Shown here piece after piece: positions 1,765 to 54,612 of a DNA stretch of 55,059 nt. The notes under the pieces are model-generated. The model searched no databases, was not told the DNA's origin, and saw nothing but the letters and a program-made list of their open reading frames with translations. The DNA is taken from sequence record DRR723986_1873; one strand, written 5' to 3'. A program made the position numbers and the translations under genes. Position 1 is the first letter of the stretch. Each line of letters opens with the position of its first letter.

Positions 1765-1849
1765 ATATAGCAGCACCGGGCCCGCTTGCCCAGCACCGAC
1801 ACGCATTGGTGAATCACCGTGCCGGACCGCCGCGAACCGGCGGCAGCAG

Positions 1850-6613: not shown

Positions 6614-6636
6614 CCCGCGGTTAGGAGGACCACGAT

Positions 6637-7980: not shown

Positions 7981-7993
7981 TCGGGTAGCGCGC

Positions 7994-18761: not shown

Positions 18762-18781
18762 CGAAAGAAGGAATCAGCAAG

Positions 18782-19579
18782 ATGGATTTACAGGATCAGC
18801 GCATTGTGCTGACCGGCGCTACCGGCGGCATCGGCTGCGCCATGGCAAGCGCACTGGACCGGGCCGGGGCTCAGCTATTACTGGTCTCGCGCAGCGAGGA
18901 TAAGCTGACATCCCTGTACAACAGCTTGTCCAGCCGCAGACACGGTTTGGTCGTCGCCGACATCACGACCGAGCGGGGCCGCGCGGCGGTGGTTGCGGCC
19001 TGCGATGACGGCTGCGACATGCTGGTCAACAATGCCGGCGTCAACCACTTTGGCCTGCTGGAGAACCAGCAAGCTGACACCCTTCGCCAGACCTTCGAGG
19101 TCAATGTGGTCGCACCAATCCTGTTGATCAAACTGCTGCTACCAAAACTGGTAAATGCCCGGGGGACGATCGTCAATGTCGGCTCGGGCTACGGCAGCAT
19201 CGGCTTCGCCGGCTATTCCAGCTATTGCGCATCCAAGTTTGCGCTGCGAGGCTTCTCCGAAGCGCTTGGCCGTGAACTCGCCGACTCGGGTGTGCGCATC
19301 CTGTACCTTGCCCCGCGCGCCGTGGACACGCCGATGAACCCACCAGAGGTGGTCGCAATGAACAGCGAGCTGGGCAATGCGGTCGACTCGCCGGACCAGG
19401 TCGCCTCGGAGCTCCTGAAGATGCTCAAAAAGAACCAGAAGCGGCGCTACATCGGCTGGCCGGAAAAGTTTTTCGTCCGCCTTAACGGCCTTTTCCCAGG
19501 CATCGTGGATGCGGCGCTGGCCAAACAGCTGCCGGTGATTCGCCGTCATGCTCTGGCGATAGCCGATGACGCGGGATAG
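18782..19579 (+). CDS. SDR family oxidoreductase
   Basis: TGATGGIG, VNNAG, YCASK. Confidence 0.92.
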   Translation: MDLQDQRIVLTGATGGIGCAMASALDRAGAQLLLVSRSEDKLTSLYNSLSSRRHGLVVADITTERGRAAVVAACDDGCDMLVNNAGVNHFGLLENQQADTLRQTFEVNVVAPILLIKLLLPKLVNARGTIVNVGSGYGSIGFAGYSSYCASKFALRGFSEALGRELADSGVRILYLAPRAVDTPMNPPEVVAMNSELGNAVDSPDQVASELLKMLKKNQKRRYIGWPEKFFVRLNGLFPGIVDAALAKQLPVIRRHALAIADDAG

Positions 19580-35166: not shown

Positions 35167-36873
35167 ATGAACACGCAGATGGAAGTCGACTGGCTGGTAG
35201 CCGGAAGCGGGGCCGCCGGTATGACCGGCGCCGTCGTTGCGCATGAACTCGGCGGCTCGGTATTACTGGTTGAGAAAGAACCCATGTTCGGCGGCACCAC
35301 CTGCAAATCCGGTGGCGTGGCCTGGATACCCGGCAATCATCGCCAGCCCGAGCACGGCGTTTCCGACAGTGTCGACGAGGGCTATCGCTACCTGAAGGCC
35401 CTGATCGGTGATTCGGTCAGCGAGCCCCGGCTGCGAGCCTACGCCGAGCGCGCGCCAGAGATGCTGCGCTTCATGATGCAGCACAGCCATGTGGACTACA
35501 GCCCGCTGCCCAGCTACATGGACTACTACGAGCACGCCGATGGCTACAAGTCCGGCGGCCGCTCGATGGACCCCGGAGAGATTCACCTGAACCTGCTCGG
35601 TGAGGCGGGCCGCCACATCCGTGACGATCACACCGCCCTGCTGCCGTTCAATGTTACCGTGCCCGAGGGTCGCCGCCTGGGCAAGATGGATGCCGGCGCC
35701 TACCTGCTCGGCGTGCGCCTGTTGTTCCGCTACCTGCTGGACCTGCCCGCACGCTTCAAGGGCCGGGAGGACCTGCGCCTTACGCTCGGGCCGGCACTGG
35801 TCGCCAAGCTGCGCCTGAGCCTGCTGGACCGTGACATTCCCCTGTGGCTCAACAGCCCGATCACCGAACTGCTCACCGGGAACAACCGGGTCGTGGGTGC
35901 GCGGGTGCAGCGAGAGGGCCAGACAGTCGAGGTTCGCGCTCGCCGTGGCGTGCTGCTGGCCACCGGTGGATTTTCCCGCAACGCCGCCATGCGCCAGCAG
36001 TTCCAGCAGGCGCCCACCGGTTCCGACTGGACCGCTTCGGCACCCGGTTCCACCGGCGACGGCATCACACTGGGCCAGACCGTTGGCGCCGGACTGGGCT
36101 TCATGGGCAGCGCCTGGTGGTCACCCACGGTGATTGTGCCCGATGGTCAGCGCCTCGCGCTGATCGCCGGCAAGGCCTATCCCGGTTCCATCATGGTCAA
36201 CCGCGCGGGGCTGCGCTTCACCAATGAAGCTGCGCCCTATGAAGACGTGGTCAAGGACCAGTACGCCAGCGAAGCCCGGGGCGAAGGGGCGATCCCCGCC
36301 TACCTGGTGTTCGATGCCAACTACCGTCGCAAGTACCCGGCGGGCCATATCAAACCCGGCAAGATGGAGGCGGACGCCCTGTTGCCACAGGCCTATTTCG
36401 ACACCGGCATGCTGACCCGGGCTGACTCCCTGGAGGAACTGGCGCAAGTCACCGGCATCGATGGCGGCCAGCTGGCCGAAACTATCGAGCGCTTCAACGC
36501 CAATGCCCGCCAGGGTGTGGACCCTGATTTTCAGCGCGGCGCCACCGAACAGGATCGCTACTATGCCGACCACAAGCATCAGCCGAACCCCTGCCTGGGC
36601 CCGCTGGAGGAACCTCCGTTCTACGCCCTGCGCGTGGAAGCCGGCGACCTGGATACCAAGGGCGGCCTGCAGTGTGACGAACACGGCCGCGTGCTCACAG
36701 CAAGCGGCGAGGTTATTCCGGGGCTTTACGCAGCGGGCAATACCAGTGCTGCGGTGATGGGTGACACCTACCCCGGCGCCGGCGCCACCATCGGCTCGGC
36801 CATGACGTTTGCCTATATCGCAGCACAGCACGCCATGAGCGGCGAAGCGGACATCGACGCCAAAGACAACTAA
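35167..36873 (+). CDS. 3-ketosteroid delta-1-dehydrogenase-like FAD oxidoreductase
   Basis: GSGAAG, GGTTCKSGGVAWIP, MDYY, NEAAPYED, DTKGGL, YPGAGATIG; the KstD catalytic Tyr-equivalent positions appear retained. Confidence 0.8.
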   Translation: MNTQMEVDWLVAGSGAAGMTGAVVAHELGGSVLLVEKEPMFGGTTCKSGGVAWIPGNHRQPEHGVSDSVDEGYRYLKALIGDSVSEPRLRAYAERAPEMLRFMMQHSHVDYSPLPSYMDYYEHADGYKSGGRSMDPGEIHLNLLGEAGRHIRDDHTALLPFNVTVPEGRRLGKMDAGAYLLGVRLLFRYLLDLPARFKGREDLRLTLGPALVAKLRLSLLDRDIPLWLNSPITELLTGNNRVVGARVQREGQTVEVRARRGVLLATGGFSRNAAMRQQFQQAPTGSDWTASAPGSTGDGITLGQTVGAGLGFMGSAWWSPTVIVPDGQRLALIAGKAYPGSIMVNRAGLRFTNEAAPYEDVVKDQYASEARGEGAIPAYLVFDANYRRKYPAGHIKPGKMEADALLPQAYFDTGMLTRADSLEELAQVTGIDGGQLAETIERFNANARQGVDPDFQRGATEQDRYYADHKHQPNPCLGPLEEPPFYALRVEAGDLDTKGGLQCDEHGRVLTASGEVIPGLYAAGNTSAAVMGDTYPGAGATIGSAMTFAYIAAQHAMSGEADIDAKDN

Positions 36874-36887
36874 ACGGGAGACAGCGA

Positions 36888-37940
36888 ATGAGCGACTACC
36901 GGTATGCGTTCCTTAAACCAGGACACTTCGCGCGCGGTTGGCACATCGTGCTTTTCTCACAGGAACTGGCGGTTGGCGAAGCGAAGCCCCTGGACTACTT
37001 CAACCACGAATTCGTGATCTACCGCGGAGAGTCGGGACAGGTCGCTATCCTCGACGCCTACTGCCCCCACCTGGGCGCACACCTGGCCAGCGACGGTGGC
37101 CGCCTGATCGGTGACACCATTGCCTGCCCCTTCCACGGCTGGACGTTTGACGGCAGCGGTCGCTGCGTCGACATCCCCTATGCCAAGCAGATTCCTGAGA
37201 AGGCGGTAAACGCCCTGAAAGCCTGGCCCGTGCTGGAGAAGAACGGCTTTATCGCGATCTGGTACGACCCCCAGGGCAATCCGCCGGAAGACTACCTGCC
37301 GGATATCACCCAGTGGGGCAAGGGAGACGGTTCGGCGCCGGGCTGGGGTGACTGGGTATTCCACCGTTCACGGATTCGCGCCCAGCCCTGCGATGTGATC
37401 GAGAACATCGTCGACATTGCCCACTTCCCGCATGTTCACGGCGGCCAGGTGCAATCGTTCGAAAACCGCTTTGGGGAACGCAGCGTCACCCAGATTTCCC
37501 GGGTGCAGCGGTCAGCGGATGCGAAGATGGTGATCCCGCCGGGCCTGCCTTTCGATATGGAGGCACTGCGTGACCAGGCCACCCAGGAAGAGAGCGATGC
37601 CTGGGGCGACGCCACCTACCACGGTCCTTCCATCATGTATTACTACACCGAGGTAAAGAATGCCGGGTTTGCATTCCAGAGCTGGTGGGTGAACTACCAT
37701 ACCCCGGTGAATGACAGCGAGGTGGATTTGTGCAGCGCCGTCATCGTCAACAGCCTCACCGATGAACCACTGCCCCAGGAGTTTGTCGAGCTATACCCGC
37801 AAACCGCCCATGCCGCCTTTGGCCAGGACGTTGAGATCTGGAAAAGCAAGTTGTACCGGGAAGATCCAATCCTGTGTGACGGTGACGGCCCGATCAACAA
37901 ACTGCGCAAGTGGTACGAGCAGTTTTACCTGCCGCTCTGA
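36888..37940 (+). CDS. Rieske oxygenase, 3-ketosteroid 9-alpha-hydroxylase (KshA)-like
   Basis: CPHLGA...CPFHGW, ENIVDIAHFPHVH, QDVEIW, LCDGDGPINKLRKWYEQFY. Confidence 0.82.
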   Translation: MSDYRYAFLKPGHFARGWHIVLFSQELAVGEAKPLDYFNHEFVIYRGESGQVAILDAYCPHLGAHLASDGGRLIGDTIACPFHGWTFDGSGRCVDIPYAKQIPEKAVNALKAWPVLEKNGFIAIWYDPQGNPPEDYLPDITQWGKGDGSAPGWGDWVFHRSRIRAQPCDVIENIVDIAHFPHVHGGQVQSFENRFGERSVTQISRVQRSADAKMVIPPGLPFDMEALRDQATQEESDAWGDATYHGPSIMYYYTEVKNAGFAFQSWWVNYHTPVNDSEVDLCSAVIVNSLTDEPLPQEFVELYPQTAHAAFGQDVEIWKSKLYREDPILCDGDGPINKLRKWYEQFYLPL

Positions 37941-37975
37941 TGATCGCCATGGGCCAGTAACCGTAGCGGTCGCGC

Positions 37976-38974
37976 TCAGGACGACCCGGCACTGCCCAGC
38001 TGCTCGATCAGCGCATCCACCGCCAGCCCCAGGTCGAGTTCACCGGGGCTGGTGCCGCCAATCAGCTCCGCAACCGCCGGTGACGCCATCAGTTGATCGA
38101 GGCGATGTTCCAGCTGGCGCCGCAGGATGTTCTTCAGCATACGCTGGCGCCGCTGTTCCCGGCGCTGCTGCAGCTTGTCGTCGACCGCCAGCGCCGCCTG
38201 GTGCGCCTCGATGGCCCGCCACAGTTCAGCCACACCCTCGCCTTCGGTCGCCACGCAATCGACCACTTCACGCGCTGCCACGGTAGGCAACAGCGCCAGG
38301 GAATCGAGCAGGTCCCGACGGGTCTGGGCGGCACCGGGCTTGTCAGCCTTGTTGATCACGAACAGGTCCCCGGCCTCGGTGATCCCCGCCTTATTGGCCT
38401 GAATCGAATCTCCCCAGCCCGGGTTGAGTACCACCACAACGGCGTCGGCCAGATCCATAATGTCCAGCTCAACCTGGCCGATGCCCAGGGTCTCGATAAT
38501 CACCAGTGGCCAGCCACAGGCATCGAACAGGCGCACGCAGGTAGACGCGGCCTGGGCGAGACCGCCCATTTCGCCACGCGACGCCATCGACCGGATAAAC
38601 ACGTCACCGCCGAAGCTGCGCCCCTGCATACGAACCCGGTCACCCAGCAGGGCACCGTGGGAAAACGGTGAACTGGGGTCCACCGCGAGGACCGCCACCC
38701 GTCCGACCGCTTCCCGCGCTACCGGCAGCAGGGCGTTGATCAGGGTGGATTTGCCCGCGCCGGGCGGGCCGGTAATGCCGATCACAAGGGCCCGGCCCAG
38801 CTGACCGGCAATCCCCTGCTCTATTGCGAGGACCTGATCGGCACCCCGCTCCGCCAGGCTGAGCAAGCGCGCCAGGGACGCGCGATCTCCCGCCAGCGCA
38901 GCGGCCAGAACATTGTCGACCGGCTCCAAGCTGAGCTGCCCGTCAGGTCCTGCCGGTGAGCCGCTCAGCGGCAT
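37976..38974 (-). CDS. meaB: MeaB/ArgK GTPase, B12 mutase chaperone
   Basis: GITGPPGAGKST, AVDPSSP, LLGDRVRM, IQANKAG, VINKAD. Start uncertain (ATG 38974 or TTG 38929). Confidence 0.88.
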   Translation of the reverse strand: MPLSGSPAGPDGQLSLEPVDNVLAAALAGDRASLARLLSLAERGADQVLAIEQGIAGQLGRALVIGITGPPGAGKSTLINALLPVAREAVGRVAVLAVDPSSPFSHGALLGDRVRMQGRSFGGDVFIRSMASRGEMGGLAQAASTCVRLFDACGWPLVIIETLGIGQVELDIMDLADAVVVVLNPGWGDSIQANKAGITEAGDLFVINKADKPGAAQTRRDLLDSLALLPTVAAREVVDCVATEGEGVAELWRAIEAHQAALAVDDKLQQRREQRRQRMLKNILRRQLEHRLDQLMASPAVAELIGGTSPGELDLGLAVDALIEQLGSAGSS

Positions 38975-39329
38975 CGACGATATCCGCCAGCTGGGATCCC
39001 GGCGGATAGACTTCCACCCCCAATGCTTGCAGCTGCTTTGCCGCGCGGGGCGGAATGGTGCCACCGGCAAACACGGGCAGATCGGGCCGGGCCGCCTTCA
39101 CCGCGTTGACAGCCCGGATAGCCACATCGATGTGGCCACCCACGTTCAGGCCAACCAGGTCAACGTCCTCGTCCACGGCAGCGCTGACGATGTCGTCGGT
39201 GTCCGCCATCCCGATCATAATGACTTCGAAGCCGGCATCGCGCAGTGCCCGTGCCACTATGGTGGGGCCGCGCCAGTGGCCATCGAGGCCAGTCTTGGCC
39301 ATCAGGATGCGTTTCTGCGGTGCGCTCAT
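38943..39329 (-). CDS. Cobalamin-binding small subunit of acyl-CoA mutase
   Basis: AKTGLDGHWRG (DxHxxG), LRDAGFEVI, FAGGTIP. Confidence 0.9.
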   Translation of the reverse strand: MSAPQKRILMAKTGLDGHWRGPTIVARALRDAGFEVIMIGMADTDDIVSAAVDEDVDLVGLNVGGHIDVAIRAVNAVKAARPDLPVFAGGTIPPRAAKQLQALGVEVYPPGSQLADIVDAAERLTGRT

Positions 39330-39340
39330 CGGGCGACCTC

Positions 39341-40972
39341 CTAAATTTGAATCGGTGTATTCCAGTCGCCGAACACATCGCGGTACACGTCGCCGATCTC
39401 GCCCAGCGTCACCTCCGCTGCCAGTGCTTCCATCATCGCGGGCATGATGTTGGCGTCACCGCGACAGGCCTTGTCCAGGTCTTTGAGCGCCGCCGCGGCA
39501 CCGGCTTCATGCCGGGTGCGCAACACGTCCCTGAGCCGCTCGGTGGCGACGTCGAAGGCGTCATCGGTACCCATAAAACCATCGACCTCGAAGGGGGACT
39601 CGTCGTCACGGGCGGTGGTGACACCGACCACGTGCTGCTCCCCGGATTCCATCGCCATGAACTCCCGGTACTGGTTCTCCGCCGCCTGCGCGTGCAGCCA
39701 GCCGGAGTCGAGAGCGGCAAGGTAGCCACCCTGCTGCTGAATTTCCTCGAAAAACTCCCAGGCTTTCTCCACCAGCTGGGCAGTCAGGGTCTCAACGTAA
39801 AAGGAACCGCCCAGGGGATCGGTCACCCCGCAAATATTGGTTTCTTCCTGCAGAATCTGCTGGATCCGCACCGACATCTGGTGCGCATGCTCCGAGGGAA
39901 TGGACAGGGCTTCGTCATAGCCCGAGACACCCAGCGACTGCACCCCGCCCAGCACCGCACCCATCGCCATGATGGTCCCGCGCACGATGTTGTTGAGCGG
40001 TTGCTGATAGGTCATCTTGGAACCCGCGGTCACGCAGTGAATGCGCAGGTTCGCGGTTTTCGGGTCGGTGATGTCATAGCGCTGGCGCAACAGGTCGCTC
40101 CACATCAGCCGCGCCGCGCGCATCTTGCAGGCTTCCTCGAAGAAATGAATGGAGGCCCGGAAGCTGACCCCGCCGCAACCCTTGGCCGCCCGCTCCAGCG
40201 GCATGGTGCCTCGTCGCTTGATCTCATCAAGGTACTCGACGGCGTTGGCAAACAGGGTACCGAGTTCCTGGTCAGGGGTAAGGCCGGTGTCCGCCGCGTT
40301 GTAGCCGGCGATAGAGACCGGCACCCAGTAAGGGAGGTGCTGGTCGCAGAATTCGATGATGTCGGCATTGAAGCGCAAACCCGCAGCGGTCGGAATCTGC
40401 TGCTTGGTGACACAGCCCAGGTAGGTGAGGTTGAAATCGCTCTGCCCGGTGCCGGCGATCTTCGCCAGGTCGTAGCCGCGCTCTTTGGCCACGGTCCAGT
40501 AGGCTGCCAGGGCAAAGGGCGCATGCTGCACCACCGCCCCGCCCGCATGACCAAAACTGGTGTCCACCGGCAGGCCGTCCATGCAGATGGCGGTATCGCG
40601 CACACTCTGCATGACCGCGCCGGTCAGGCCCACGTCTTCCCTGCGGGACACCACGTCAGGGTGATCCACGTTATAGCAGTGATCAGCCGTGTTGCGGTCA
40701 TGCTCCATGATGAAGCCGGTCTCCCCGTTCTTCAGCAGGAACTTGATGCGTTCGTTCTCGTCTTCGGGCTTGCCGAAACCGCTCAGCTGGAAGATCCGCC
40801 AGGGTTTGCTGCGATAGCCGGTGGGGTGAAATCCGCGGTGATAGGGCGCTTCACCGGGCGCGATCGACGAGCGCTCCCGATGGGCCGGCGGGATGTCTTC
40901 CGCCGTGTAAAAAGACTTGAGTTCGATGCCCGAGGCAGCGTGAACCTGTTCCGGACTTTGCTTATGGCTCAT
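39341..40972 (-). CDS. Divergent B12-dependent acyl-CoA mutase, large (TIM-barrel) subunit
   Basis: PGEAPYHRG, QQPLNNIVR, LGGVQSL, YDEAL, DPLGGSFYVETLT, TLGEI. Substrate-specifying motifs differ from methylmalonyl-CoA mutase. Confidence 0.88.
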   Translation of the reverse strand: MSHKQSPEQVHAASGIELKSFYTAEDIPPAHRERSSIAPGEAPYHRGFHPTGYRSKPWRIFQLSGFGKPEDENERIKFLLKNGETGFIMEHDRNTADHCYNVDHPDVVSRREDVGLTGAVMQSVRDTAICMDGLPVDTSFGHAGGAVVQHAPFALAAYWTVAKERGYDLAKIAGTGQSDFNLTYLGCVTKQQIPTAAGLRFNADIIEFCDQHLPYWVPVSIAGYNAADTGLTPDQELGTLFANAVEYLDEIKRRGTMPLERAAKGCGGVSFRASIHFFEEACKMRAARLMWSDLLRQRYDITDPKTANLRIHCVTAGSKMTYQQPLNNIVRGTIMAMGAVLGGVQSLGVSGYDEALSIPSEHAHQMSVRIQQILQEETNICGVTDPLGGSFYVETLTAQLVEKAWEFFEEIQQQGGYLAALDSGWLHAQAAENQYREFMAMESGEQHVVGVTTARDDESPFEVDGFMGTDDAFDVATERLRDVLRTRHEAGAAAALKDLDKACRGDANIMPAMMEALAAEVTLGEIGDVYRDVFGDWNTPIQI

Positions 40973-41100
40973 GGCGGGACACCCTCGGAATATACTCAGG
41001 TTATATTTTATTTACTCATAGTAGTAACACTTTACTTCACGATATTCAATTGCTAGTCTCAGCGGACTAAACATAATAACTAGCCCGTGAGGAGGCATTC

Positions 41101-42279
41101 ATGTTCTCTTCCAACGCGTCTACGCTTGGACTGACCGCAACCGAACGCGTGCACATGGGTCGGCGTGCCGCCGATGCCCTGGCCGAAGAATGTGAACTGC
41201 TGGGCGCAAAGCGCGTGTTCCTGCTGGTAAGCACCACGCTGCGCACCACCACCGACGAAATCAGCCAGATAGAGCAGGCCCTGGGAGACCGCATTGCAGC
41301 GGTGTTCAATGGCATCGGGGCACACTCGCCACGTACCGATGTACTGAAGGCGATCGCCGCCGCCCGCGAGGTGGACACTGACCTGATCATCACCGTTGGC
41401 GGGGGTTCAGTGACCGATGCCGGCAAGGTCATCGCTCTGGGACTGAAGCACAACATCACCACCCATGAAGGCTTTGAGGGCTACTACGTCTTCGTCAATG
41501 AAGCCGGGGAAACCGTGGTGCCCGAGTTCGAAGGGCCCGACATCCGCGTCATCTGCTGCCCTACTACCTTGTCCGGCGGCGAATTCAACACCATGGGCGG
41601 GGTCACCGACGACCGGATTAACCACAAGCAGGGCTATACCCATCGCATGATGGCGCCGATCGCCATCGTTCTCGACCCGGCACTGACAGTACACACCCCG
41701 GAGTGGCTGTGGACTTCCACCGGTGTACGCTCGGTGGACCACGCGCTGGAAGCGCTGGGTTCGCTGCAATCCAATTACTTCTGCGACGGTATCGCTGACA
41801 GCGCACTGCGCTTCCTTGCCGAGGGCCTGCCTGCGGTCAAGGCCAATCCGGATGACCTGGAGGCCCGACTGCGCTGTCAGGTCGGGGCCTGGCAATCCAT
41901 GGTGCCGATCATCGGCGGAGTGCCCATGGGCGCCAGTCACGCCATCGGCCACGTACTGGGTGGCACGGCGGACGTGCCACACGGCTACTGTTCCTGTGTG
42001 ATGGCACCGGCGGTACTGGCATTCAACAAGCCCGTGAACGCTGACCGACAGCTGCGCATCAGCGCCTGTTTCGGCCAAGCCGATGAAGATGCGAGCACCC
42101 TGGTGGACGCCTTCATCAGTAGCCTGGACATGCCACGCTCCCTGGCTGCGGTGGGCGTGGGTGAAGACCAGCTTGAGCTGATCTCTGAATTCACCATGAA
42201 GGACTTCTGGGCCCGAACCAACCCCCGGACAATCGAGGGACCGGCGGACGTGCGACAGATTCTCGATATGGTGCGCTAG
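41101..42279 (+). CDS. Iron-containing alcohol dehydrogenase / maleylacetate-reductase-like
   Basis: VGGGSVTDAGK, PTTLSGGE, DHALE, SHAIGHVLG, PHG; GAGGAGG RBS. Confidence 0.88.
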   Translation: MFSSNASTLGLTATERVHMGRRAADALAEECELLGAKRVFLLVSTTLRTTTDEISQIEQALGDRIAAVFNGIGAHSPRTDVLKAIAAAREVDTDLIITVGGGSVTDAGKVIALGLKHNITTHEGFEGYYVFVNEAGETVVPEFEGPDIRVICCPTTLSGGEFNTMGGVTDDRINHKQGYTHRMMAPIAIVLDPALTVHTPEWLWTSTGVRSVDHALEALGSLQSNYFCDGIADSALRFLAEGLPAVKANPDDLEARLRCQVGAWQSMVPIIGGVPMGASHAIGHVLGGTADVPHGYCSCVMAPAVLAFNKPVNADRQLRISACFGQADEDASTLVDAFISSLDMPRSLAAVGVGEDQLELISEFTMKDFWARTNPRTIEGPADVRQILDMVR

Positions 42280-42283
42280 CCCA

Positions 42284-42928
42284 ATGGCAACTGCCAGCGC
42301 AACGCCCGAAGCGAGCGGATTGAAAGCGGAGATTTCCGACTTCAAGCGGCGCCGGATCCGCGAGGAAGCCAGCCACCTGTTTTTTGAACTGGGTTACGAA
42401 GGCACGACCATTGATGCAATCGCCCAGCGCCTGAACGTCACCAAGCCCTTCATCTACTCCTACTACAGCAACAAGAGCGAGTTGCTGTACGACATCTGCC
42501 AGACCGGTATCACCCTGTCGCTGGATGCCATGGAACGCGCCTGTGACGGCGACAAGCAACCAAAGGACCGGCTCAAGCAACTGGTCGAGCGCGTCCTGAG
42601 AATCATCTTTGATTACCAGGAATACATCGTGGTCTACGAGCGCGAGGAGAAGAATCTCGAGCCCGGGCAAGCCAGGGAAATCCGTGAGCTGCGCAACCTG
42701 TTCGACCACCGGCTGGCAAGCATTCTCGAGCAGGGCAACGAAGCCGGCGAATTCAGCATCGCCGATCCGGTTATGACCGCAACCACCATCGGCGGCATGA
42801 TCACCTGGGTGGCTTTCTGGTACTCGCCGAAGGGCCGGCGCTCGGAGTACGAAATCATTGCCCACGTGGAGGACATGGTGGACGCCGTGGTAAGGCGCAA
42901 AAGCGCGCGCAAGAGCAAGGTGGCCTGA
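42284..42928 (+). CDS. TetR-family regulator (KstR2-like C-terminus)
   Basis: HTH GYEGTTIDAIAQRLNVTKPFIYSYYSNKSELL; C-terminal GMITWVAFWYSPKG. Confidence 0.9.
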   Translation: MATASATPEASGLKAEISDFKRRRIREEASHLFFELGYEGTTIDAIAQRLNVTKPFIYSYYSNKSELLYDICQTGITLSLDAMERACDGDKQPKDRLKQLVERVLRIIFDYQEYIVVYEREEKNLEPGQAREIRELRNLFDHRLASILEQGNEAGEFSIADPVMTATTIGGMITWVAFWYSPKGRRSEYEIIAHVEDMVDAVVRRKSARKSKVA

Positions 42929-42964
42929 AGCGGGGCGCTCTGCGCAGTACGGGAGATTCGAGAA

Positions 42965-44587: not shown

Positions 44588-44627
44588 TAACGATGATGTA
44601 ACAACATCCAAACCGCGAGGAACCACT

Positions 44628-46826: not shown

Positions 46827-46833
46827 GGCATGC

Positions 46834-46857
46834 GCCCCGACCTTTCGGGGTCGGGGC
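46834..46857 (+). other. Intergenic stem-loop with UUCG tetraloop (no U-tract)
   Basis: GCCCCGACC-T-TTCG-G-GGTCGGGGC between the receptor stop and the P450 start. Confidence 0.7.
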
Positions 46858-46864
46858 AACACGC

Positions 46865-48094
46865 ATGACGCTCACCGACTACCACTTTGATCCAATGGAT
46901 CCCGGGCTACTCCGGGATCCCTACCCTATTTTTCACCACCTGCAACAGGAAGACCCGGTGCACTGGTCGCCCCTGGGCTTCTGGGTGGTCACCCGCTTCG
47001 ACGACGCCCGCCGGGTGCTGATCGACAAGCGCTTCGGCCAGGGCGATTTCGTCAAGAATATACAGCTGTTTTACGGCGACGATTTCGACGTGATGTCGCA
47101 CCCGGCCTATGCCTGGCTGTCACGGGTATTTGTGATGCAGGATCCGCCGGACCATACACGGCTGCGCGGACTTATCGCCAATGCCCTGTCACTGAAGCGC
47201 ATCCGGGCCATGGAGCCCCGCATCCGCGAACTGGCAAAATCGCAGCTGGCGCGCTTCCGCTCGGAAGGTCATAGCAACTTCATCACGGAATATGCCTACC
47301 TGTTCCCAACCCTGGTGATGTGCGACATGCTGGGCATGCGGGATGACGAGTACTCGCCAGAGCTGTTGCTGCAGCTGAACCAGGCGATCGCCGACACATT
47401 CCCGGTGTTTGAGACCCGCGCCCTGGGGCCCGAGGAACTGGCCCTCGCTGACCGGCAGATGACTTTCCTGACCGAGTTCTTCGACGAACTGTTTGACAGT
47501 CGACGGCAACAGCCGCGGGATGACCTCACCACGGCCCTGGTGCAGTCGCGCGACGGCGGCGACACACTGACCCCTGAAGAATTGAGTACCTCGGTAATCG
47601 GCCTGTTCGGGGCCGGCTTCGAGACCACCGCCCACATGATCGGCAACGGCATGTATTGCCTGGGCCAATACCCCGAACAACGCCAACGGCTGGTCGAGGA
47701 TATCGGGCTGGCCGAAAGTGCGGTTGAAGAATTCCTGCGCTTCGAATCGTCCCTGCAGGCCACCTATCGAACCGCCCTGCAGCAGGAGGAAATCGCCGGA
47801 CAGCTTATTGAGCCGGGGCAGCGGATACTGGCGATTGTGGCCGCCGCCAACCGGGATCCCGCCCAGTTTGCCAACCCTGATGACTTTGATATCTCACCCC
47901 GCGAGCAAAAACCGCTGACTTTCGGCGGCGGGATTCACTATTGCGTCGGGGCGGAACTCGCCCGGCTGGAAGGAAGAGTTTTTCTCGAGGAATTGGTCTC
48001 CAACTACCCGGGGTTTGAGGTAGATATCGACAGCGCAAAGCGCCGACCCGCGTTCCTGTTTCGCGGCTTCGAAGCCCTGAAGGTCAGCCTCTAG
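46865..48094 (+). CDS. Cytochrome P450
   Basis: DPPDHTRLR, AGFETT, EEFLR, AANRDP, FGGGIHYCVG. Confidence 0.95.
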   Translation: MTLTDYHFDPMDPGLLRDPYPIFHHLQQEDPVHWSPLGFWVVTRFDDARRVLIDKRFGQGDFVKNIQLFYGDDFDVMSHPAYAWLSRVFVMQDPPDHTRLRGLIANALSLKRIRAMEPRIRELAKSQLARFRSEGHSNFITEYAYLFPTLVMCDMLGMRDDEYSPELLLQLNQAIADTFPVFETRALGPEELALADRQMTFLTEFFDELFDSRRQQPRDDLTTALVQSRDGGDTLTPEELSTSVIGLFGAGFETTAHMIGNGMYCLGQYPEQRQRLVEDIGLAESAVEEFLRFESSLQATYRTALQQEEIAGQLIEPGQRILAIVAAANRDPAQFANPDDFDISPREQKPLTFGGGIHYCVGAELARLEGRVFLEELVSNYPGFEVDIDSAKRRPAFLFRGFEALKVSL

Positions 48095-48108
48095 CGCAAG
48101 CTGACTGA

Positions 48109-48549
48109 CTAGCCAGCCGCTGCCTGGGGCATCTGCAGGAACTCAATAATCAGCGGGTCGCCAGCTTTTTCAAGATAGGCAAAACGCGTACTGGCGTCCC
48201 ATTCCTTATACCAGATCGGCCGGTAGCCGAGCTCCCCCGCTCCGGCCAGGGACTTATCCATATCGTCGGTGCGATAGCGCACGTGGTGCATACCGAAACG
48301 CCCGGCCTGCGCCGCTTCGCCGTGCGGGCTATCGCCTTCCAGCCACTGGATCAATTCAATCTCGGTCGAACCATTCTGGGCAACGGCGATGTGCAAGCTA
48401 CAGTCAGCGGCGGCACCACGAAATTCCGCATCCTGGATAGTGGTCGGCTGCCACAGGGTAAATTCGCCGAACAGCGGCGCGTAGTCCGCCATGGCTCGCT
48501 GTACATCCTCAACGACAAATCCAACCTGGTCGATAAGCGGAAACTGCAT
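48109..48549 (-). CDS. VOC (glyoxalase / methylmalonyl-CoA epimerase-like) family protein
   Basis: IDQVGFVVED, EIELIQ, GMHHV, IIEF metal-site pattern. Confidence 0.8.
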   Translation of the reverse strand: MQFPLIDQVGFVVEDVQRAMADYAPLFGEFTLWQPTTIQDAEFRGAAADCSLHIAVAQNGSTEIELIQWLEGDSPHGEAAQAGRFGMHHVRYRTDDMDKSLAGAGELGYRPIWYKEWDASTRFAYLEKAGDPLIIEFLQMPQAAAG

Positions 48550-49427
48550 CAGTGGTTCTCCTGCATGGGACGAATAATGGTCTTGGCATACTGCGCCATG
48601 AAGCGCTTTTTCTGCTCGAGCGTACTGTTTTTACCCAGTGCAAATTCGAAGGGCAAATTAAGCGTGGCGGTCATGCCGGACTCTTCCAGGGGACGCAGAA
48701 GATCGACGCTCTGCTCGGCATAGAGTCCGACCAGGGTCTCAAAAGGCTGCTGCTCACGCCCGTACTCACGCCGCAGCTCATGCAGGCGTGCAAGAATACC
48801 CGGCACCTCCTCCGGCGTATTCCCGGCGCCGATCCAGCCGTCACCGTAGCGCGCCGCGCGCCGCAGCGCGAGCTTGTTGGCGCCCCCGACGAAGATCGGC
48901 ACCGCCTCAGGTGGTGCCGGCGCCAGACGGATGGGCGGGAAATGTATGTGCTCCCCCTGGTACTCGACCAGTTCATCCCGCCACAGTAAACCGAGGGATT
49001 CGATGCACTCATCGAGGCGCTTGCCGCGACTTGCGAAATCCACGCCATAGATGTCGAACTCCTCGCGCATCCAGCCCGCGCCCACACCGAGGATAAACCG
49101 CCCCTGACTCAGGATAGCGAGGGTGCCAGTGGCCTTGGCCACCTCAATCGGGTTGCGCAGGGGCAGCACATACACCCCGGTGGTGAACTTTAACTTGCTG
49201 GTCACCGCCGCCATCGCCGCGATGCTGACCCACTGGTCAGGGTATTCGCTGTCCTCGGTCTGCGGCGGGTAGCCGGTGTCGGAATAGGGGTAGTTCGGCG
49301 CCATGCTGGCCGGCCACAGGGCGTGGTCACCCCCCATCAGGCCCTCAAAGCCCAGTTCCTCCGCGCAACGGGCGATCTCCGGTAGCTGCTCTGTTTCGAC
49401 CCAGGTTATGGCCTGCCAGAATTTCAT
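48549..49427 (-). CDS. LLM-class (probably F420-type) oxidoreductase
   Basis: AEELGF, GDH, VYVLPLRNP, GRFILGVGAGW, RAARYGDGW. Confidence 0.85.
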   Translation of the reverse strand: MKFWQAITWVETEQLPEIARCAEELGFEGLMGGDHALWPASMAPNYPYSDTGYPPQTEDSEYPDQWVSIAAMAAVTSKLKFTTGVYVLPLRNPIEVAKATGTLAILSQGRFILGVGAGWMREEFDIYGVDFASRGKRLDECIESLGLLWRDELVEYQGEHIHFPPIRLAPAPPEAVPIFVGGANKLALRRAARYGDGWIGAGNTPEEVPGILARLHELRREYGREQQPFETLVGLYAEQSVDLLRPLEESGMTATLNLPFEFALGKNSTLEQKKRFMAQYAKTIIRPMQENH

Positions 49428-49440
49428 TACGGTTCTCCGC

Positions 49441-50205
49441 TCAGGGCGTCATGCCGCCATCGACCATATACACGCCCCCGTTGAGGAAGCGACTCTCGTC
49501 ACCAGCGAGGAACACCATCAGGTTGGCGACATCTGCCGGCTGACCGTAACGGCCCAGAGGAATACGGGCCATCATGGCCGCCCGGGTCTCTTCCGGATTG
49601 TCAGGGGTTATTCCCTGTTCAAGGCTGCCCATCATCCGGCCCTCGATCGGCGAGGGGTTGACGGTATTGACCCGGATGTTCAGCGGACCGCCCTCCTTCG
49701 CCGCCGAGCGCATCAGGCCGATAACGGCATGCTTGCTCGTGGTGTAGGCTGACAGGCCGGGTGACCCGCCCACTCCCGCCACCGAAGAGGTAATCACAAT
49801 GCTGCCGCCCCCGGCTGCAGCCATCACCGGAAACACGTGCTTCATGCCCAGAAAGACCCCGGTCACGTTGATTTCCATCAGCCGGCGGAACAGGTCGGTA
49901 TCGTACTCAGCCAGCGGGGCGATAACCCCTTCGACTCCCGCATTGGCGATCAATACATCCACACCACCGTAAAGATCGACTGCCCTGGCGATATAGTTGC
50001 GGGTGTCCTCCTCTGAACAGACATCGGCAACGCAATAGTTGACCTGCTCGCTGGCCAGGGCCTGCACTGCCTGCTGCAAGGCAGATTCATCGACATCGAC
50101 CAGCAGCACCTTCGCGCCCTGGGAGAGGAACTGGCGAGCGGCCTCCTGGCCGATTTCGCCGGCGCCGCCGGTCAGCACCACCGATTTCGAACTCACAGAA
50201 CTCAT
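49441..50205 (-). CDS. SDR family oxidoreductase
   Basis: TGGAGEIG, ANAG, YTTSK, DGG; ATG 50205 with GGGAG RBS. Confidence 0.9.
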   Translation of the reverse strand: MSSVSSKSVVLTGGAGEIGQEAARQFLSQGAKVLLVDVDESALQQAVQALASEQVNYCVADVCSEEDTRNYIARAVDLYGGVDVLIANAGVEGVIAPLAEYDTDLFRRLMEINVTGVFLGMKHVFPVMAAAGGGSIVITSSVAGVGGSPGLSAYTTSKHAVIGLMRSAAKEGGPLNIRVNTVNPSPIEGRMMGSLEQGITPDNPEETRAAMMARIPLGRYGQPADVANLMVFLAGDESRFLNGGVYMVDGGMTP

Positions 50206-50383
50206 CCCAGACTCCCTAGCAAGTGGACCCTCATCATAGAACACATTGAGGTGGTTTTTCAGTGCTTCATCGTTGCTGCGGCCAGCCAAAAGCCGCCAGC
50301 GAGACAATCGATTCCGCTCACTTTCCGAAAACCGAAGCCCGTCTATACTCAGGTATCAATGGACGAACAAAGTTGGAGTCGCT

Positions 50384-51301
50384 ATGGAACAGCCACAACG
50401 CAACCGGGTCTACCAGTGCCATCACTTTGACAGCACTCGCTGGGATTACTACACGCCGCGCGACGATGACATCATCATCGCCACCTCCTACAAAGCCGGC
50501 ACAACCTGGACCCAGGCCATCGTCGCCAACCTGCTGTTCCCGGACGGCAATTTCCCGGCCCCTCCGGCAGCCCTGTCACCCTGGCTGGATATGCGCTTCG
50601 TGCCGCTGGAAGTTGTGCTGAACGATATCAATGCACAGGAGCACCGGCGCTACCTCAAAACCCACCTGCCGCTGGACGGTATGCGCTACGAACCCCAGCT
50701 GAAGTACGTGTATGTTTCCCGCGATGGCCGGGATGTGTTCATGTCCATGTGGAACCATTACAGCAACATGACGCCCTCATCGATTGCCCACATGAACGGG
50801 ATTCCCGGGCGCGCCGGTATCGAGTTTCCTCTGCCGCCCGACGACATCCACGCATTCTGGAACACCTGGATCAGCGACAGCCTGTTCGACAACGAAGTGG
50901 GCGGCTGGCCGTACTGGTCACACCTGTCCAATGTGCAAAGCTGGTGGGATTACCGCGAGTTGCCGAACATCGAGTTCTTTCACTACAACGACCTGGTGAC
51001 CGATCCGGCGGGAGAGATGAAGCGGCTGGCGGATTACCTGGAGATCGATGTACCGCAGGCGTCATGGCCACGAATCCTGGAGGAAACGTCCTTCACCGGC
51101 ATGAAAGCCAAGGCTGATGAGTATGTGCCAGCGGCCGGCTACTTCTGGAAAGGCGGCTCCCAGACCTTCATCAACAAGGGCACCAACGGCCGTTGGCGCG
51201 ATGTGCTCACTGACACCGAGCTGGCGCAATACGATGCGGCCTGCGATAAGGCCCTGAGCCCCGATTGCCGCGCCTGGCTGGAAAACGGCAGGCTGGGTTG
51301 A
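50384..51301 (+). CDS. PAPS-dependent sulfotransferase (Sulfotransfer_1 type)
   Basis: 5'-PSB TSYKAGTTW, KTHLP, 3'-PB RDGRDVFMS, KGTNGRW; GGAG RBS before ATG 50384. Confidence 0.88.
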   Translation: MEQPQRNRVYQCHHFDSTRWDYYTPRDDDIIIATSYKAGTTWTQAIVANLLFPDGNFPAPPAALSPWLDMRFVPLEVVLNDINAQEHRRYLKTHLPLDGMRYEPQLKYVYVSRDGRDVFMSMWNHYSNMTPSSIAHMNGIPGRAGIEFPLPPDDIHAFWNTWISDSLFDNEVGGWPYWSHLSNVQSWWDYRELPNIEFFHYNDLVTDPAGEMKRLADYLEIDVPQASWPRILEETSFTGMKAKADEYVPAAGYFWKGGSQTFINKGTNGRWRDVLTDTELAQYDAACDKALSPDCRAWLENGRLG

Positions 51302-51343
51302 ATTTCGCTTACACTGCGTCACGCCAACTACAGGAAACGTCAC

Positions 51344-51820
51344 ATGACCAGGATCACCCCCCTTCAGGCAAGCGATCTCGATGCCGTCTCCGGTTCAAGT
51401 TACCCGGAACCCATGAAAACAAAGGTCGGGAACGGCTGCTGGCGGCCCCTTGGTGACCCGTTCGACCTGACCCAGTTTGGCGTCAACCTCGAGGAATTCA
51501 ATCCGGGTGACCAGTCTGCCCTCAGGCACTGGCATACGCTGACTGACGAGTTCGTGTATATCCTGTCGGGCGAGATGACCCTGGTTACCGATGATGGCGA
51601 GACCCTGATGAGTGCGGGTATGTGCATGGGCTTCAAGGCGGGAGAGCCCAATGGCCATCACCTGGTAAATCGCGGCACCGGGCCGGCAAGCGTCCTGGTG
51701 ATGGGCGCGCGAGTCCCCGGAGATACCTGCTTTTATCCGGATGATGACCTGCTCTGGGTCAGGACGGAGGAAGGCTCACACGCCGCCCACAAGGATGGCA
51801 GCGCCTATCCAAAAGATTGA
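51344..51820 (+). CDS. Cupin domain protein
   Basis: LTQFGVN, SALRHWH..DEFVYIL, NGHHLVN, YPDDDL. Confidence 0.88.
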   Translation: MTRITPLQASDLDAVSGSSYPEPMKTKVGNGCWRPLGDPFDLTQFGVNLEEFNPGDQSALRHWHTLTDEFVYILSGEMTLVTDDGETLMSAGMCMGFKAGEPNGHHLVNRGTGPASVLVMGARVPGDTCFYPDDDLLWVRTEEGSHAAHKDGSAYPKD

Positions 51821-51825
51821 GCAGC

Positions 51826-51853
51826 AAAAAAAAGGGCCGCACTTGGCGGCCCC
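51826..51853 (-). terminator. Rho-independent terminator of the minus-strand TonB receptor gene
   Basis: Stem GGGCCGC/GCGGCCC (51834-51852) with A8 at 51826-51833, which is U8 on the minus strand. Confidence 0.85.
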
Positions 51854-51889
51854 TGTTCTGACGGCGATCCTTAAACCGCCGCCCAGCTA

Positions 51890-54328
51890 TCAGTTGAACT
51901 CGTAGACCACGTCCAGACCATAGGTGCGAGGCCGACCAAAGGTATCACCGGCATAGCCCAGGGTACCGAAGTCGATACCCCACTCCCGGTATTCCTCATC
52001 GGTCAGGTTCTTGCCCCAGGCGGAGACCCGCAGACGCCCACTGTCACCCAGGCTGATGTCGTTGAGACTGACCCGGGCATTGACCAGGGTGCGATCGTCA
52101 GCGCTGTCATACTGGTTCTGGAATGGGTGGAAGGTCATGGAGTCCATGTAGCCGACATCCACGCGAGATGAGAGCGTGCCCAGACTCAGCGGCAAGTCCC
52201 ACTGCAGGCCGATGTTGTAGGTATTTTCCGGGGTACGGGGTACCGTTGTGCGGTCGGAAATATCCACCTGCTGATCGGTTGCCGGGTCACGCTGCAGGTA
52301 CTCGTCGTACTCCGCATCGAGGTAGCCATAGGTCACGTCCAGCATCAACTGGTCCGTCAGCAGGGCAACAAGATCCAGTTCGATACCCTGGTAGGTTGCG
52401 TTACCCGCATTCACCAGGCGGCTGGAAGCGCCACCGGTGCCGGCTTCAAACTGGGCAGTCTGGATGTCGTCGTACTCGTTGTAGAACACGGCGATGTTGG
52501 CCCGCAGGCGGTTATCCATCCACTCGGTCTTGGCGCCGACCTCGAATGAGACAATCTCCTCCTCGTTGACCTCTGCTTCCCAGGAACTGATCGTCGAGGC
52601 GCGGGAGTTGAAGCCGCCACCGTTATAGCCGGTCGAATGAGTCGCATACAGGCGCATATCGTCGCTAAGTGCCCAGTTAACCGTCAGCAGGTAGCTGATA
52701 TTGTCCCAGCTGTTCGAGTTGGTGAGCTTATCGTCGATAGAGCTGTGCCCAAGGCTTTCATTGAACAGGTAGGCCGAACGGTCATCCTCGGTGTAACGCA
52801 GGCCGGCGGTCAGGTCCAGGGAGTCCGTCAGGCTGTAGGTTGCCTGGCCATAGGCGGCCCAGGATTCCGTCTCCTGGCCATAGACAAAGTCGACCCGCCC
52901 ATTCAGGTTGGGATCGGCCCCGGGGAAGGGGAACGGCAGGGGCAGGCGCTGGCTGCCAATGCAGACGGGACCCGTACCGAAGTCATTACAGAACCCGGCA
53001 CCGGTAAACGCTGCCGCCAGGCCCGGGTCACCAACCAGGAACTGGATTGGCAGGGCAAAGGTCTGTGGATTGTCCTGTTTGACCTCTTCTTCATAGGAAT
53101 ACAGGCCCACGGTGTACTGCAGTTTCTCGTTGAATGCGTCCCCGATAAGCTGCAGTTCGTGGGTCTGCATCTCGATGAAGCCCTCGTCGATGGAGGCCAC
53201 GAAGCCCGGCGTCTTGATCACCTGGCCACCGCCATAAAACAGGTCCGCGGTGCTGAGATCACCGCCATCGAGATCGGTCAGGTCGTAGGTTGAGTTGGTT
53301 TCACGATAGGCGCCAATGTACTTCAGCAGGAAGGGGCCCGCGTCCCAGGCCAGGGTCAGGCTGTGACCCTCGACCTCAAGCTCTTCCTCGCTGACTGAGT
53401 CGAGACTGAATTTCTCGCGGCGCTTGTCAGGATCGCCGACGGTGGCCGCCATCTCCTGGTAAAGCTGGCCGCCAAGAACGGTATAGGGGAACGGCGTGGT
53501 GGTAAGGCCATTGTAGATACTGCTCTTGACCTCGGTAATCTGGAACGGCGTGGGCACACCGGTGTTATCCGTCTTGTCGTAGGTATAGTCAGCGGTGAAG
53601 TTATCGGAGGGCTCCAGGCGCAGGGCAATGCGGTAGGCCTTGTTGTCCTCACTGCCCAGGTTGCTCTCACTGCCGGGCACGTCATTGTCCGCCCAGCCGT
53701 CGTATTCCATCCATGCCGCTGAGACTTTGGCTGACAGCATGTCGGCAATCTTCGGCGTGTTGACCGAGCCGGACAGGCGCTGGTAGCCATCGTTACCCAC
53801 GGAGGCATCGAGTTTGACGCCGAATTCGCCGGTAGGCTTGGCGGTGGTAACGTTGACTGCCCCACCCGTGCTGTTACGACCGAACAGCGTGCCCTGAGGC
53901 CCGCGCAGTACTTCCACGCTTTGCAGGTCCACAATGTCGAACACCGCGCCCACGGTTTTGCTCATGTAGACGCCATCGATATAGAAGCTGGTCTTCGGGT
54001 CTACCATCAGCGAGGTTTCACCACTGCCCACCCCGCGAATAACGATCGACATATTGGAGTTTGACGATGGTTGCTTGCGAATATTGGTGTTGGGCACGAA
54101 GTCGCCGATGTCCGAGATATCATAGATACCCAGGTCAGCAATTTTCTCGCTATTGAATGCGGTGACCGCGATTGGCGTATCCTGCAGCGCGGTTTCCCGA
54201 CGCTGGGCGGTAACAATAACTTCCTCAAGAACGCCGGTGTCCTGCGCCACTGCATAAGTGGGTGGCAGGGCAGCTGCCATGACGGCGGCGGCGAGCGGGA
54301 CGAGCGTGGAGCGATGGTTCTTCGGCAT
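51890..54328 (-). CDS. TonB-dependent receptor
   Basis: Signal peptide from ATG 54328 (GAGGA RBS), LEEVIVTAQRR, VEVLRGPQGTLFGRN, C-terminal YEFN. Confidence 0.95.
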   Translation of the reverse strand: MPKNHRSTLVPLAAAVMAAALPPTYAVAQDTGVLEEVIVTAQRRETALQDTPIAVTAFNSEKIADLGIYDISDIGDFVPNTNIRKQPSSNSNMSIVIRGVGSGETSLMVDPKTSFYIDGVYMSKTVGAVFDIVDLQSVEVLRGPQGTLFGRNSTGGAVNVTTAKPTGEFGVKLDASVGNDGYQRLSGSVNTPKIADMLSAKVSAAWMEYDGWADNDVPGSESNLGSEDNKAYRIALRLEPSDNFTADYTYDKTDNTGVPTPFQITEVKSSIYNGLTTTPFPYTVLGGQLYQEMAATVGDPDKRREKFSLDSVSEEELEVEGHSLTLAWDAGPFLLKYIGAYRETNSTYDLTDLDGGDLSTADLFYGGGQVIKTPGFVASIDEGFIEMQTHELQLIGDAFNEKLQYTVGLYSYEEEVKQDNPQTFALPIQFLVGDPGLAAAFTGAGFCNDFGTGPVCIGSQRLPLPFPFPGADPNLNGRVDFVYGQETESWAAYGQATYSLTDSLDLTAGLRYTEDDRSAYLFNESLGHSSIDDKLTNSNSWDNISYLLTVNWALSDDMRLYATHSTGYNGGGFNSRASTISSWEAEVNEEEIVSFEVGAKTEWMDNRLRANIAVFYNEYDDIQTAQFEAGTGGASSRLVNAGNATYQGIELDLVALLTDQLMLDVTYGYLDAEYDEYLQRDPATDQQVDISDRTTVPRTPENTYNIGLQWDLPLSLGTLSSRVDVGYMDSMTFHPFQNQYDSADDRTLVNARVSLNDISLGDSGRLRVSAWGKNLTDEEYREWGIDFGTLGYAGDTFGRPRTYGLDVVYEFN

Positions 54329-54612
54329 CGTACGATCCTCTTGCGAGTTTTTATAAACGTTATTGGCTAAAAATAACACGACATCGCCAGGCAGCGAAAT
54401 ATGGCTTTTTATACCAAGGCGCCAGGAGATAAGCGCCGGAGCGGCAGCCGACAGCTCACATCGCGATGTGCCACGCTCAACAGCCGGTCGCAGTGCGCAT
54501 TAATCGCTTTTTTCGATGATCGATGTCAATTTATTGCATTTTACAGATCACCCTTGCGGGACTAAGGTTATTGGTGAGTGGTGCAAATGGCACCCTGACT
54601 TCACTTCTCTGA

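Follow-up and report, generated by a model that had tools for sequence, protein, structure and literature searches.

The DNA stretch of 55,059 nucleotides from sequence record DRR723986_1873 (this whole stretch is called the window below) carries at positions 37976-48094 a group of genes which, in our reading, probably forms a conserved catabolic cluster of a marine Halieaceae bacterium, arranged around a split adenosylcobalamin (AdoCbl)-dependent acyl-CoA mutase of uncharacterised specificity. The cluster probably serves the breakdown of a branched acid. This reading is built on the observed gene content, its conservation among relatives, the exchange of the uptake genes in some of them, the B12 apparatus and the distinct pocket of the mutase.

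The mutase operon lies on the minus strand. The large, substrate-binding subunit (39341-40972, 543 amino acids) matches PF01642 at 1.1e-138 and TIGR00641 with 387 bits (cut-off 303.8), and since the PF01642 match spans profile positions 3-512 of 512, the catalytic domain is complete. Next to it are the B12-binding small subunit (38943-39329, 128 amino acids; TIGR00640, 95 bits, cut-off 57.45), whose translation contains the DxHxxG B12 motif as D-G-H-W-R-G, and a MeaB-type G-protein chaperone (open frame 37976-39070; PF03308, 7.9e-74; TIGR00750, 269 bits, cut-off 240.75), where TTG 38929 and ATG 38974 are the start candidates and the true start is probably near 38929. TIM-barrel domain, DxHxxG B12 domain and MeaB chaperone, the marks of the AdoCbl-dependent acyl-CoA mutase superfamily, are thus all present. 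Beyond an AT-rich divergent intergenic region of 128 bp (40973-41100) the plus strand encodes an iron-type alcohol/hydroxyacid dehydrogenase (Fe-ADH, 41101-42279; PF00465, PF25137), a TetR-family regulator (42284-42928; TetR_N and TetR_C_24), an AMP-forming acyl-CoA ligase (42965-44587; PF00501, PF13193; NF004808 with 491.9 bits, below the cut-off of 722), a TonB-dependent outer-membrane receptor with plug and barrel domains (44499-46826; probable start ATG 44628, with a signal peptide after it) and a cytochrome P450 of the CYP107-like group (46865-48094; PF00067). The preliminary description of this DNA had listed these genes together with their neighbours on both sides, and the listing of open reading frames and the Pfam and NCBIfam scans located each of them where it had been placed.

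Conservation of the mutase neighbourhood

In order to find relatives of the cluster, one genome per species was scanned, which gave 128 stretches with mutase relatives; the best 80 were taken as loci, each consisting of the mutase gene with up to 10 kb of flank on each side. Orthologues were called by tblastn of the window proteins against these loci at no less than 40% identity and 50% coverage, and the 43 loci that extend at least 9 kb to each side of the mutase are referred to as fully flanked. The open reading frames of all loci were also clustered de novo, with frames chosen by the GC content of third codon positions, the window proteins were scanned with Pfam and NCBIfam profiles, RNA families were sought with Rfam, and the genomes of five relatives (G001-G005), all of which carry the mutase cluster and of which G002 is complete, were searched whole. 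The mutases of the 80 loci are 65-90% identical to that of the window over the best tblastn segment, and 64-90% in the alignment. Most of these loci belong to Halieaceae, some to Steroidobacteraceae and Woeseiaceae, and a few to alpha- and betaproteobacteria; the cluster is present in cultured strains including Haliea alexandrii, Pseudohaliea rubra, Kineobactrum sediminis and Congregibacter variabilis, and the ten sequencing runs listed as containing 38900-48094 are all marine DNA metagenomes.

The genes of the core accompany the mutase with great regularity. An orthologue of the small subunit was found in 79 of the 80 loci (43 of the 43 fully flanked ones), of MeaB in 73 (41 of 43), of Fe-ADH in 73 (39 of 43), of the TetR regulator in 70 (39 of 43), of the ligase in 68 (41 of 43) and of the TonB receptor in 60 (37 of 43). 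The P450 is found less often (40 of 80, 26 of 43), and we regard it as accessory; in G004 its orthologue is on a contig other than that of the mutase cluster, and the cluster of Congregibacter variabilis is without it. The gene set is also retained where the gene order is altered, as in loci L068-L080, whose mutases are 64-70% identical to that of the window and of which several are labelled Steroidobacteraceae. In L075, for instance, receptor, a metallo-beta-lactamase (MBL)-fold protein and P450 are on one strand, an enoyl-CoA hydratase and a short-chain dehydrogenase/reductase (SDR) on the other, then come mutase and small subunit, MeaB and Fe-ADH in reversed orientation, and finally ligase, TetR, acyl-CoA dehydrogenase, FadB and FadA. 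Since the set survives such rearrangement, the core genes should work together, and this is the strongest argument that we can offer.

De novo clustering revealed further recurrent neighbours that have no counterpart in the window: a crotonase-type enoyl-CoA hydratase directly after MeaB in 40 loci, MBL-fold proteins in 17, an SDR in 16, a luciferase-like monooxygenase (LLM) of SfnG/RutA-like type in 14, a short-chain-type acyl-CoA dehydrogenase in 13 and a thiolase in seven. The hydratase, dehydrogenase and thiolase neighbours suggest that the rearranged product enters beta-oxidation. In Haliea-type loci (L041:1948-4253 and at least 13 others) the LLM and the MBL-fold protein are inserted between receptor and P450, which may mean that some lineages carry out an additional oxygenation or hydrolysis; the cluster of Haliea alexandrii has P450, LLM and MBL-fold genes. 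The nearest models of this LLM are the SfnG/RutA types, with scores below cut-off.

The flanks of the core behave quite differently from the core itself. Within 10 kb of the mutase not one of the 80 loci contains an orthologue of the KstD-like gene (35167-36873, plus strand), the KshA-like Rieske gene (36888-37940, plus strand), the vicinal oxygen chelate (VOC) gene (48109-48549, minus strand), the sulfotransferase (50246-51301, plus strand), the cupin (51344-51820, plus strand) or the upstream fumarate-reductase genes. The window's LLM (48549-49427, minus strand), SDR (49441-50307, minus strand) and second receptor (51890-54379, minus strand) have weak matches at 23-35% identity in 5, 21 and 39 of the 80 loci, respectively, none of them reaching 40%, and those of the second receptor mostly fall on the orthologue of the first one; by their identity levels we class the matches of all three as paralogues. 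The preliminary description had made its proposal dependent on neighbours that are conserved with the mutase, and such neighbours exist: Fe-ADH, TetR, ligase, receptor and, less often, P450. Its span of 35167-54328 holds in part, as only 37976-48094 recurs with the mutase and the flanks do not; the observation is real for the 10-kb core, not for the 19-kb span.

The same description had treated the whole of 35167-54328 as a single pathway for a methyl-branched steroid, lipid or terpenoid, in which KstD, KshA, SDR-LLM-VOC, sulfotransferase and second receptor act with the mutase. There is some ground for this, since the genes like KstD and KshA directly adjoin the mutase operon, the solved relatives of the P450 include vitamin D3 25-hydroxylase and a reconstructed CYP125, and about 7-10 kb downstream of the mutase the closest relative (L019) encodes a DUF35/ChsH2-like protein, a thiolase of SCP-x type and a MaoC-like dehydratase. 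Against it stand the counts given above and the distribution of the KstD-KshA pair: orthologues (70-78% identity) form an adjacent pair in G003 (L095/L089) and G005 (L094/L088) on contigs other than that of the mutase cluster, searches of G002 and G004, both of them carriers of the cluster, gave no match to either gene at E <= 1e-20, and G001 has KstD/KshA paralogues only (43-46% identity). Furthermore, the KstD-like protein scores 569 bits, below the equivalog cut-off of 789, no other steroid ring-cleavage gene (of the kind of HsaA-D, FadD3 or IpdAB) was seen among the Pfam matches of the window, and versions of the cluster linked to TRAP or ABC transporters (see below) favour a transportable acid. 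A pathway over the whole span is therefore very improbable, its flanks being largely refuted; the steroid link of the mutase cluster is not supported, and the position of KstD/KshA beside the mutase operon is a coincidence of this genome.

Two observations may be recorded alongside. The region of L019 just mentioned (L019:17454-21626) encodes a Rieske oxygenase alpha subunit, the DUF35/ChsH2-like protein, the thiolase, the dehydratase and a fragment of an AMP-ligase, a set that resembles side-chain cleavage and is not conserved with the mutase. The VOC protein beside the P450 of the window weakly resembles methylmalonyl-CoA epimerase, with 33 bits where the cut-off is 115. Such an epimerase would be a logical partner of a mutase, but the gene, as stated, has no counterpart in the 80 loci.

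The mutase clade and its pocket

Among solved structures the best relative of the large subunit is HcmA of 2-hydroxyisobutyryl-CoA mutase (HCM; 4r3u, 2.4e-92, 313 bits), and human methylmalonyl-CoA mutase (MCM) is next with 248 bits. IcmF is a distant solved relative (111 bits; NF045497 is matched with 124 bits against a cut-off of 1500), and the score for NF006944, 352 bits, is below its cut-off of 876. The nearest full-length representatives of 50% clusters in a full-library search are 54, 47, 41 and 39% identical, the others at most 39%, and a full-text search of the literature returned nothing on this mutase clade or on a cluster that combines mutase, P450 and receptor. By these comparisons the mutase belongs to an isolated clade of uncharacterised specificity.

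In order to describe the pocket, 77 clade members (64-90% identical to the window mutase) were aligned with two canonical MCMs from relatives; this alignment served to locate the pocket positions, and residue roles were assigned from what is generally known of the MCM and HcmA structures. In MCM, Tyr89 and Arg207 (P. shermanii numbering) bind the substrate carboxylate, and the His of the GYH motif hydrogen-bonds the thioester carbonyl. Isobutyryl-CoA mutase has Phe and Gln at the positions of Tyr89 and Arg207, pivalyl-CoA mutase also carries replacements there, and in HcmA the residues Ile90 and Asp117 set the HCM specificity. The clade differs from canonical MCM at a series of positions that are invariant in 75-77 of the 77 members: RQY is replaced by FQL (Tyr to L63), VAFD by MEHD (Ala to E90 and Phe to H91), MVRNTY by GCVTKQQ (the Arg region to C187/V188, plus K190), SGYH by AGYN (His to N225), HSQTSG by HCVTAG (Gln to V314) and SLHTN by SLGVS (His-Thr-Asn to G348-V349-S350). 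L63 and C187 occur in all 77 members, and position 188 is Val in 72, Ile in four and Pro in one. Leu and Cys/Val occupy the Tyr89 and Arg207 positions in this clade, and because the positions that hold the carboxylate are replaced, the mutase cannot be an MCM. A canonical fused MCM of 720-735 amino acids is additionally present in each of three relatives' genomes.

The alignments match the signature of the clade to no characterised mutase among those compared. One might nevertheless suppose that the mutase is a divergent isozyme of known specificity, most likely a 2-hydroxyisobutyryl-CoA mutase, else an isobutyryl- or pivalyl-CoA mutase, and that the cluster degrades some small tertiary compound, for instance 2-hydroxyisobutyrate, pivalate or a derivative of tert-butanol. 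The order of the solved relatives agrees with this, and so does the pair Leu63 and Glu90, which aligns with Ile90 and Asp117 of HcmA (27 residues apart, as expected, when counted in the 4r3u alignment), and which would be a conservative version of it if the roles of the HcmA residues carry over. In the operon for 2-hydroxyisobutyrate, ligase, mutase and a MeaB-like chaperone also stand together, according to PMC7176365. The versions of the cluster with TRAP or ABC importers would suit a small acid, and the neighbouring acyl-CoA dehydrogenase of the relatives resembles short-chain types. On the other side, GYH, HCQT and LHTN of HcmA have become GYN, HCVT and LGVS, and these differences are kept invariant across gamma-, alpha- and betaproteobacterial members of the clade. 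No 2-hydroxyisobutyrate-CoA ligase appears by name among the best 60 solved relatives of the ligase, and a TonB receptor together with a CYP107-like P450 would be unexpected for C4-C5 compounds. Taken together, we consider an isozyme of known specificity unlikely, and a specificity of its own remains our preferred reading of the mutase.

Many other uncharacterised mutase clades vary these positions too, and by its sequence the present one appears as one of several unexplored mutase types. Sister clades, represented by 44 metagenome loci with mutases 44-62% identical to that of the window, combine mutase and small subunit with a different ligase. Their surroundings vary and include genes of AstE/AspA-like, LLM and amidase type as well as genes for beta-oxidation and cobalamin synthesis; no orthologues of Fe-ADH, receptor or P450 were found in these 44 loci, which therefore offer no hint of the substrate. 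Besides, Haliea alexandrii has in locus L084 (G003:C1:712137-713678) a third gene of the mutase family, with an open frame of 588 amino acids and a score of 512 bits, in whose alignment GYH reads SAQ and HTN reads TTP; this appears to be another uncharacterised mutase type.

Uptake, proposed route and genomic setting

Four fully flanked loci (L010, L018, L056 and L064) are without orthologues of receptor, Fe-ADH and TetR, and two of them are instructive about uptake. In L010 a TRAP transporter (DctPQM) immediately precedes the genes for mutase, small subunit and ligase, and FadB and thiolase are encoded close by. The L064 mutase is preceded by a TetR regulator and a Liv-type ABC importer and followed by ligase, MeaB and a CoA-transferase of family III. 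In both loci these importers stand in for receptor, Fe-ADH and P450, and both mutases retain the pocket signature of the clade, which points to the ligase-mutase pair as a portable core. Since importers of the TRAP and ABC types can carry free carboxylic acids, the substrate of the mutase is probably a free, transportable carboxylic acid rather than a steroid. The binding proteins of the two importers have weak solved relatives only and give no clue to the ligand.

TonB receptors are the usual route of B12 into the cell, and a receptor lies beside the B12 enzyme in 60 of the 80 loci; it could therefore be argued that the receptor imports cobalamin for the mutase, and that the neighbourhood then defines no pathway. 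We give this hardly any probability. The receptor scores 50.6 bits with the BtuB model TIGR01779 (cut-off 599.7) and 33.7 bits with NF007926 (cut-off 836), the Rfam search of the window found no RNA family at all, hence no cobalamin riboswitch, the receptor-less loci L010 and L064 use organic-acid importers and not B12 transporters, and ligase, Fe-ADH and TetR are conserved alongside the receptor. The importer exchange, the low BtuB scores and the lack of a cobalamin riboswitch in the window argue that the receptor serves the substrate, not B12.

With the catabolic cluster as the preferred reading, the following route is the one that we infer. The TonB receptor would carry through the outer membrane a compound that is scarce or dissolves poorly. 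The P450, where present, and Fe-ADH would oxidise it to a carboxylic acid or modify a hydroxy acid, and other oxygenases, where present, might also help to deliver or form the acid. The ligase, which presumably makes the substrate of the mutase, would convert the acid into its CoA thioester; its best match among solved structures is FadD5 (6.7e-57), and it has a generic FadD-type look. The mutase, loaded with B12 by MeaB, would then move the thioester group to the adjacent carbon, and this shift would remove a tertiary or quaternary alpha-centre that blocks beta-oxidation. The product could be finished by the enoyl-CoA hydratase, SDR, acyl-CoA dehydrogenase and thiolase that are found in the clusters of many relatives, not in the window. 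The TetR regulator, which is presumed to repress both divergent operons, would hold them off from the shared spacer until the substrate or its CoA ester appears, and 40973-41100 is presumed to contain both promoters and the TetR operator. No inverted repeat was found in 40960-41110, sites resembling promoters or terminators occur in the spacer at chance level, and AGTAA/TTACT-like half-sites, judged by eye only, can be recognised repeatedly among the corresponding spacers of 49 loci, in several of them. The order of events in the preliminary description (uptake, oxidation, CoA activation, B12 rearrangement, beta-oxidation) is plausible for the core genes, whose conservation supports it; its identification of the substrate and its inclusion of the flanks are not supported.

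As for the substrate, Leu and Glu at the positions of Ile90 and Asp117 of HcmA lead us to prefer, and to hold weakly, a 2-methyl-branched acid whose position 2 also bears a polar group; a 2-hydroxy-2-methyl acid of greater size than 2-hydroxyisobutyrate would be an example. It is quite possible, and we put it forward tentatively, that a mutase of new specificity (with Asn for the His of GYH and a new Glu-His pair) and its ligase form a portable 'de-branching' module, to which TonB uptake, an iron dehydrogenase and, in many cases, a P450 are coupled, and with which abundant coastal Halieaceae as well as Gammaproteobacteria of sediment and soil mineralise compounds with tertiary-alcohol or quaternary carbons; 2-hydroxy-2-methyl or 2,2-dialkyl acids derived from terpenoids or carotenoids might serve as examples of its substrates.

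Several points weigh against the catabolic reading or against parts of it. The pocket gains the charged residues E90, H91, R93 and K190, so that a plain 'bigger hydrophobic pocket' is unjustified, and H91, R93 and K190 would be just as compatible with a charged substrate; moreover, the roles of the pocket residues are carried over from MCM and HcmA and were placed by alignment alone. For a small acid, a TonB receptor would be an odd means of uptake. The nearest models of Fe-ADH are 4-hydroxybutyrate dehydrogenase and maleylacetate-reductase-like ones, all below cut-off (NF058672: 145.8 bits against 500), which makes its place in the pathway tentative, and there is no aldehyde dehydrogenase in the core, so that the route from alcohol to acid is incomplete as encoded. 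The P450, whose best matches among solved structures are 5cje, 8yhn and vitamin D3 25-hydroxylase, is missing from 17 of the 43 fully flanked loci, and G002, a complete genome, has no orthologue of it (best match 29% identity). The window's own locus is without the hydratase and the other beta-oxidation genes that back the downstream part. Finally, most of the loci are metagenome bins, and the titles of some records are possibly mis-binned.

The remainder of the window gives information about the host. Positions 199-9802 are part of a photosynthesis gene cluster, in which a crtI-family desaturase (199-1728) was recognised by NCBIfam at subfamily level only, and bchO (1850-2746), bchD (2746-4506), bchI (4503-5522) and crtD (7994-9802) above the NCBIfam cut-offs. 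Because of these crt and bch genes and of the closest relatives, which are Halieaceae, the host can probably be placed among the aerobic anoxygenic phototrophs of the OM60/NOR5 group. Just past crtD lies a second P450 (10269-11645; PF00067, 7.6e-78), whose nearest models are terpenoid-oxidising P450s, below cut-off, and which is possibly a carotenoid- or terpenoid-modifying enzyme. A co-directional set at 15860-19579 encodes a protein of the thermostable-hemolysin family (PF12261), an AMP-binding enzyme, a heme-oxygenase-like iron enzyme (PF14518) and an SDR, and it is followed by a two-component system.

Relation to known systems

Of the systems compared, HcmAB with MeaH and the ligase HCL (Aquincola tertiaricarbonis, 4r3u) is like the present cluster in its split large and small subunits, in the adjoining G-protein chaperone and CoA ligase, and in having a hydrophobic and an acidic residue at the two positions that set the HCM specificity (Ile90/Asp117 in HcmA, Leu63/Glu90 here). 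These two residues are chemically similar, not identical, so that the pair typical of HCM is absent. The three other motif differences from HcmA have been given above; in addition, the ligase is of the generic FadD type, and the cluster adds TonB receptor, Fe-ADH, TetR and often P450. With MCM (fused alpha chain; human 2xij, P. shermanii 1req) the PF01642 TIM-barrel, the DxHxxG B12 domain and the MeaB chaperone are shared, but the window mutase is 33% identical to the canonical MCM of the relatives, and Leu63 and Cys187/Val188 replace the Tyr and Arg to which carboxylate binding is ascribed, so that it lacks the residue pair expected of an MCM.

The iaa cluster of Aromatoleum aromaticum, as described in PMC8360864, contains the split B12 mutase IaaGH (phenylsuccinyl-CoA/benzylmalonyl-CoA mutase) with CoA ligase and family III CoA-transferase, further an acyl-CoA dehydrogenase, a binding-protein transporter and regulators. 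The gene set of L064 is comparable. Unlike the acid proposed here, the substrate of IaaGH is the CoA ester of a dicarboxylate in an anaerobic pathway, and the present clade is without the carboxylate-binding Arg.

The camphor (CAM) pathway involves P450cam, a dehydrogenase, an LLM-type monooxygenase, a CoA ligase and the TetR-family regulator CamR, and no B12 mutase. The likeness, which concerns gene content alone, lies in the presence of P450, dehydrogenase, CoA ligase and TetR in one cluster, and some relatives add LLM monooxygenase and MBL-fold hydrolase between receptor and P450; unlike in the CAM pathway, the LLM of these relatives is nearest to SfnG/RutA.

To our knowledge about six specificities of acyl-CoA mutases have been described (methylmalonyl, isobutyryl, ethylmalonyl, 2-hydroxyisobutyryl in S and R form, and pivalyl). 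The inferred phenylsuccinyl and alkylsuccinyl types add to these, and each known type opened a pathway or a biotechnological route. With its own invariant pocket, its strict linkage to a ligase and a recognisable set of genes for uptake, oxidation and regulation, the clade is a good target for the discovery of a substrate, which is testable because the clade is spread through Halieaceae (OM60/NOR5 group) and other lineages, cultured strains included. Knowledge of the substrate would show which compound with branched or tertiary carbon these marine bacteria harvest, and how the supply of B12 limits its turnover. If the specificity is indeed new, the known systems above would be joined by a new B12-dependent carbon-skeleton mutase and by a new route for the degradation of recalcitrant branched organic matter in the sea.

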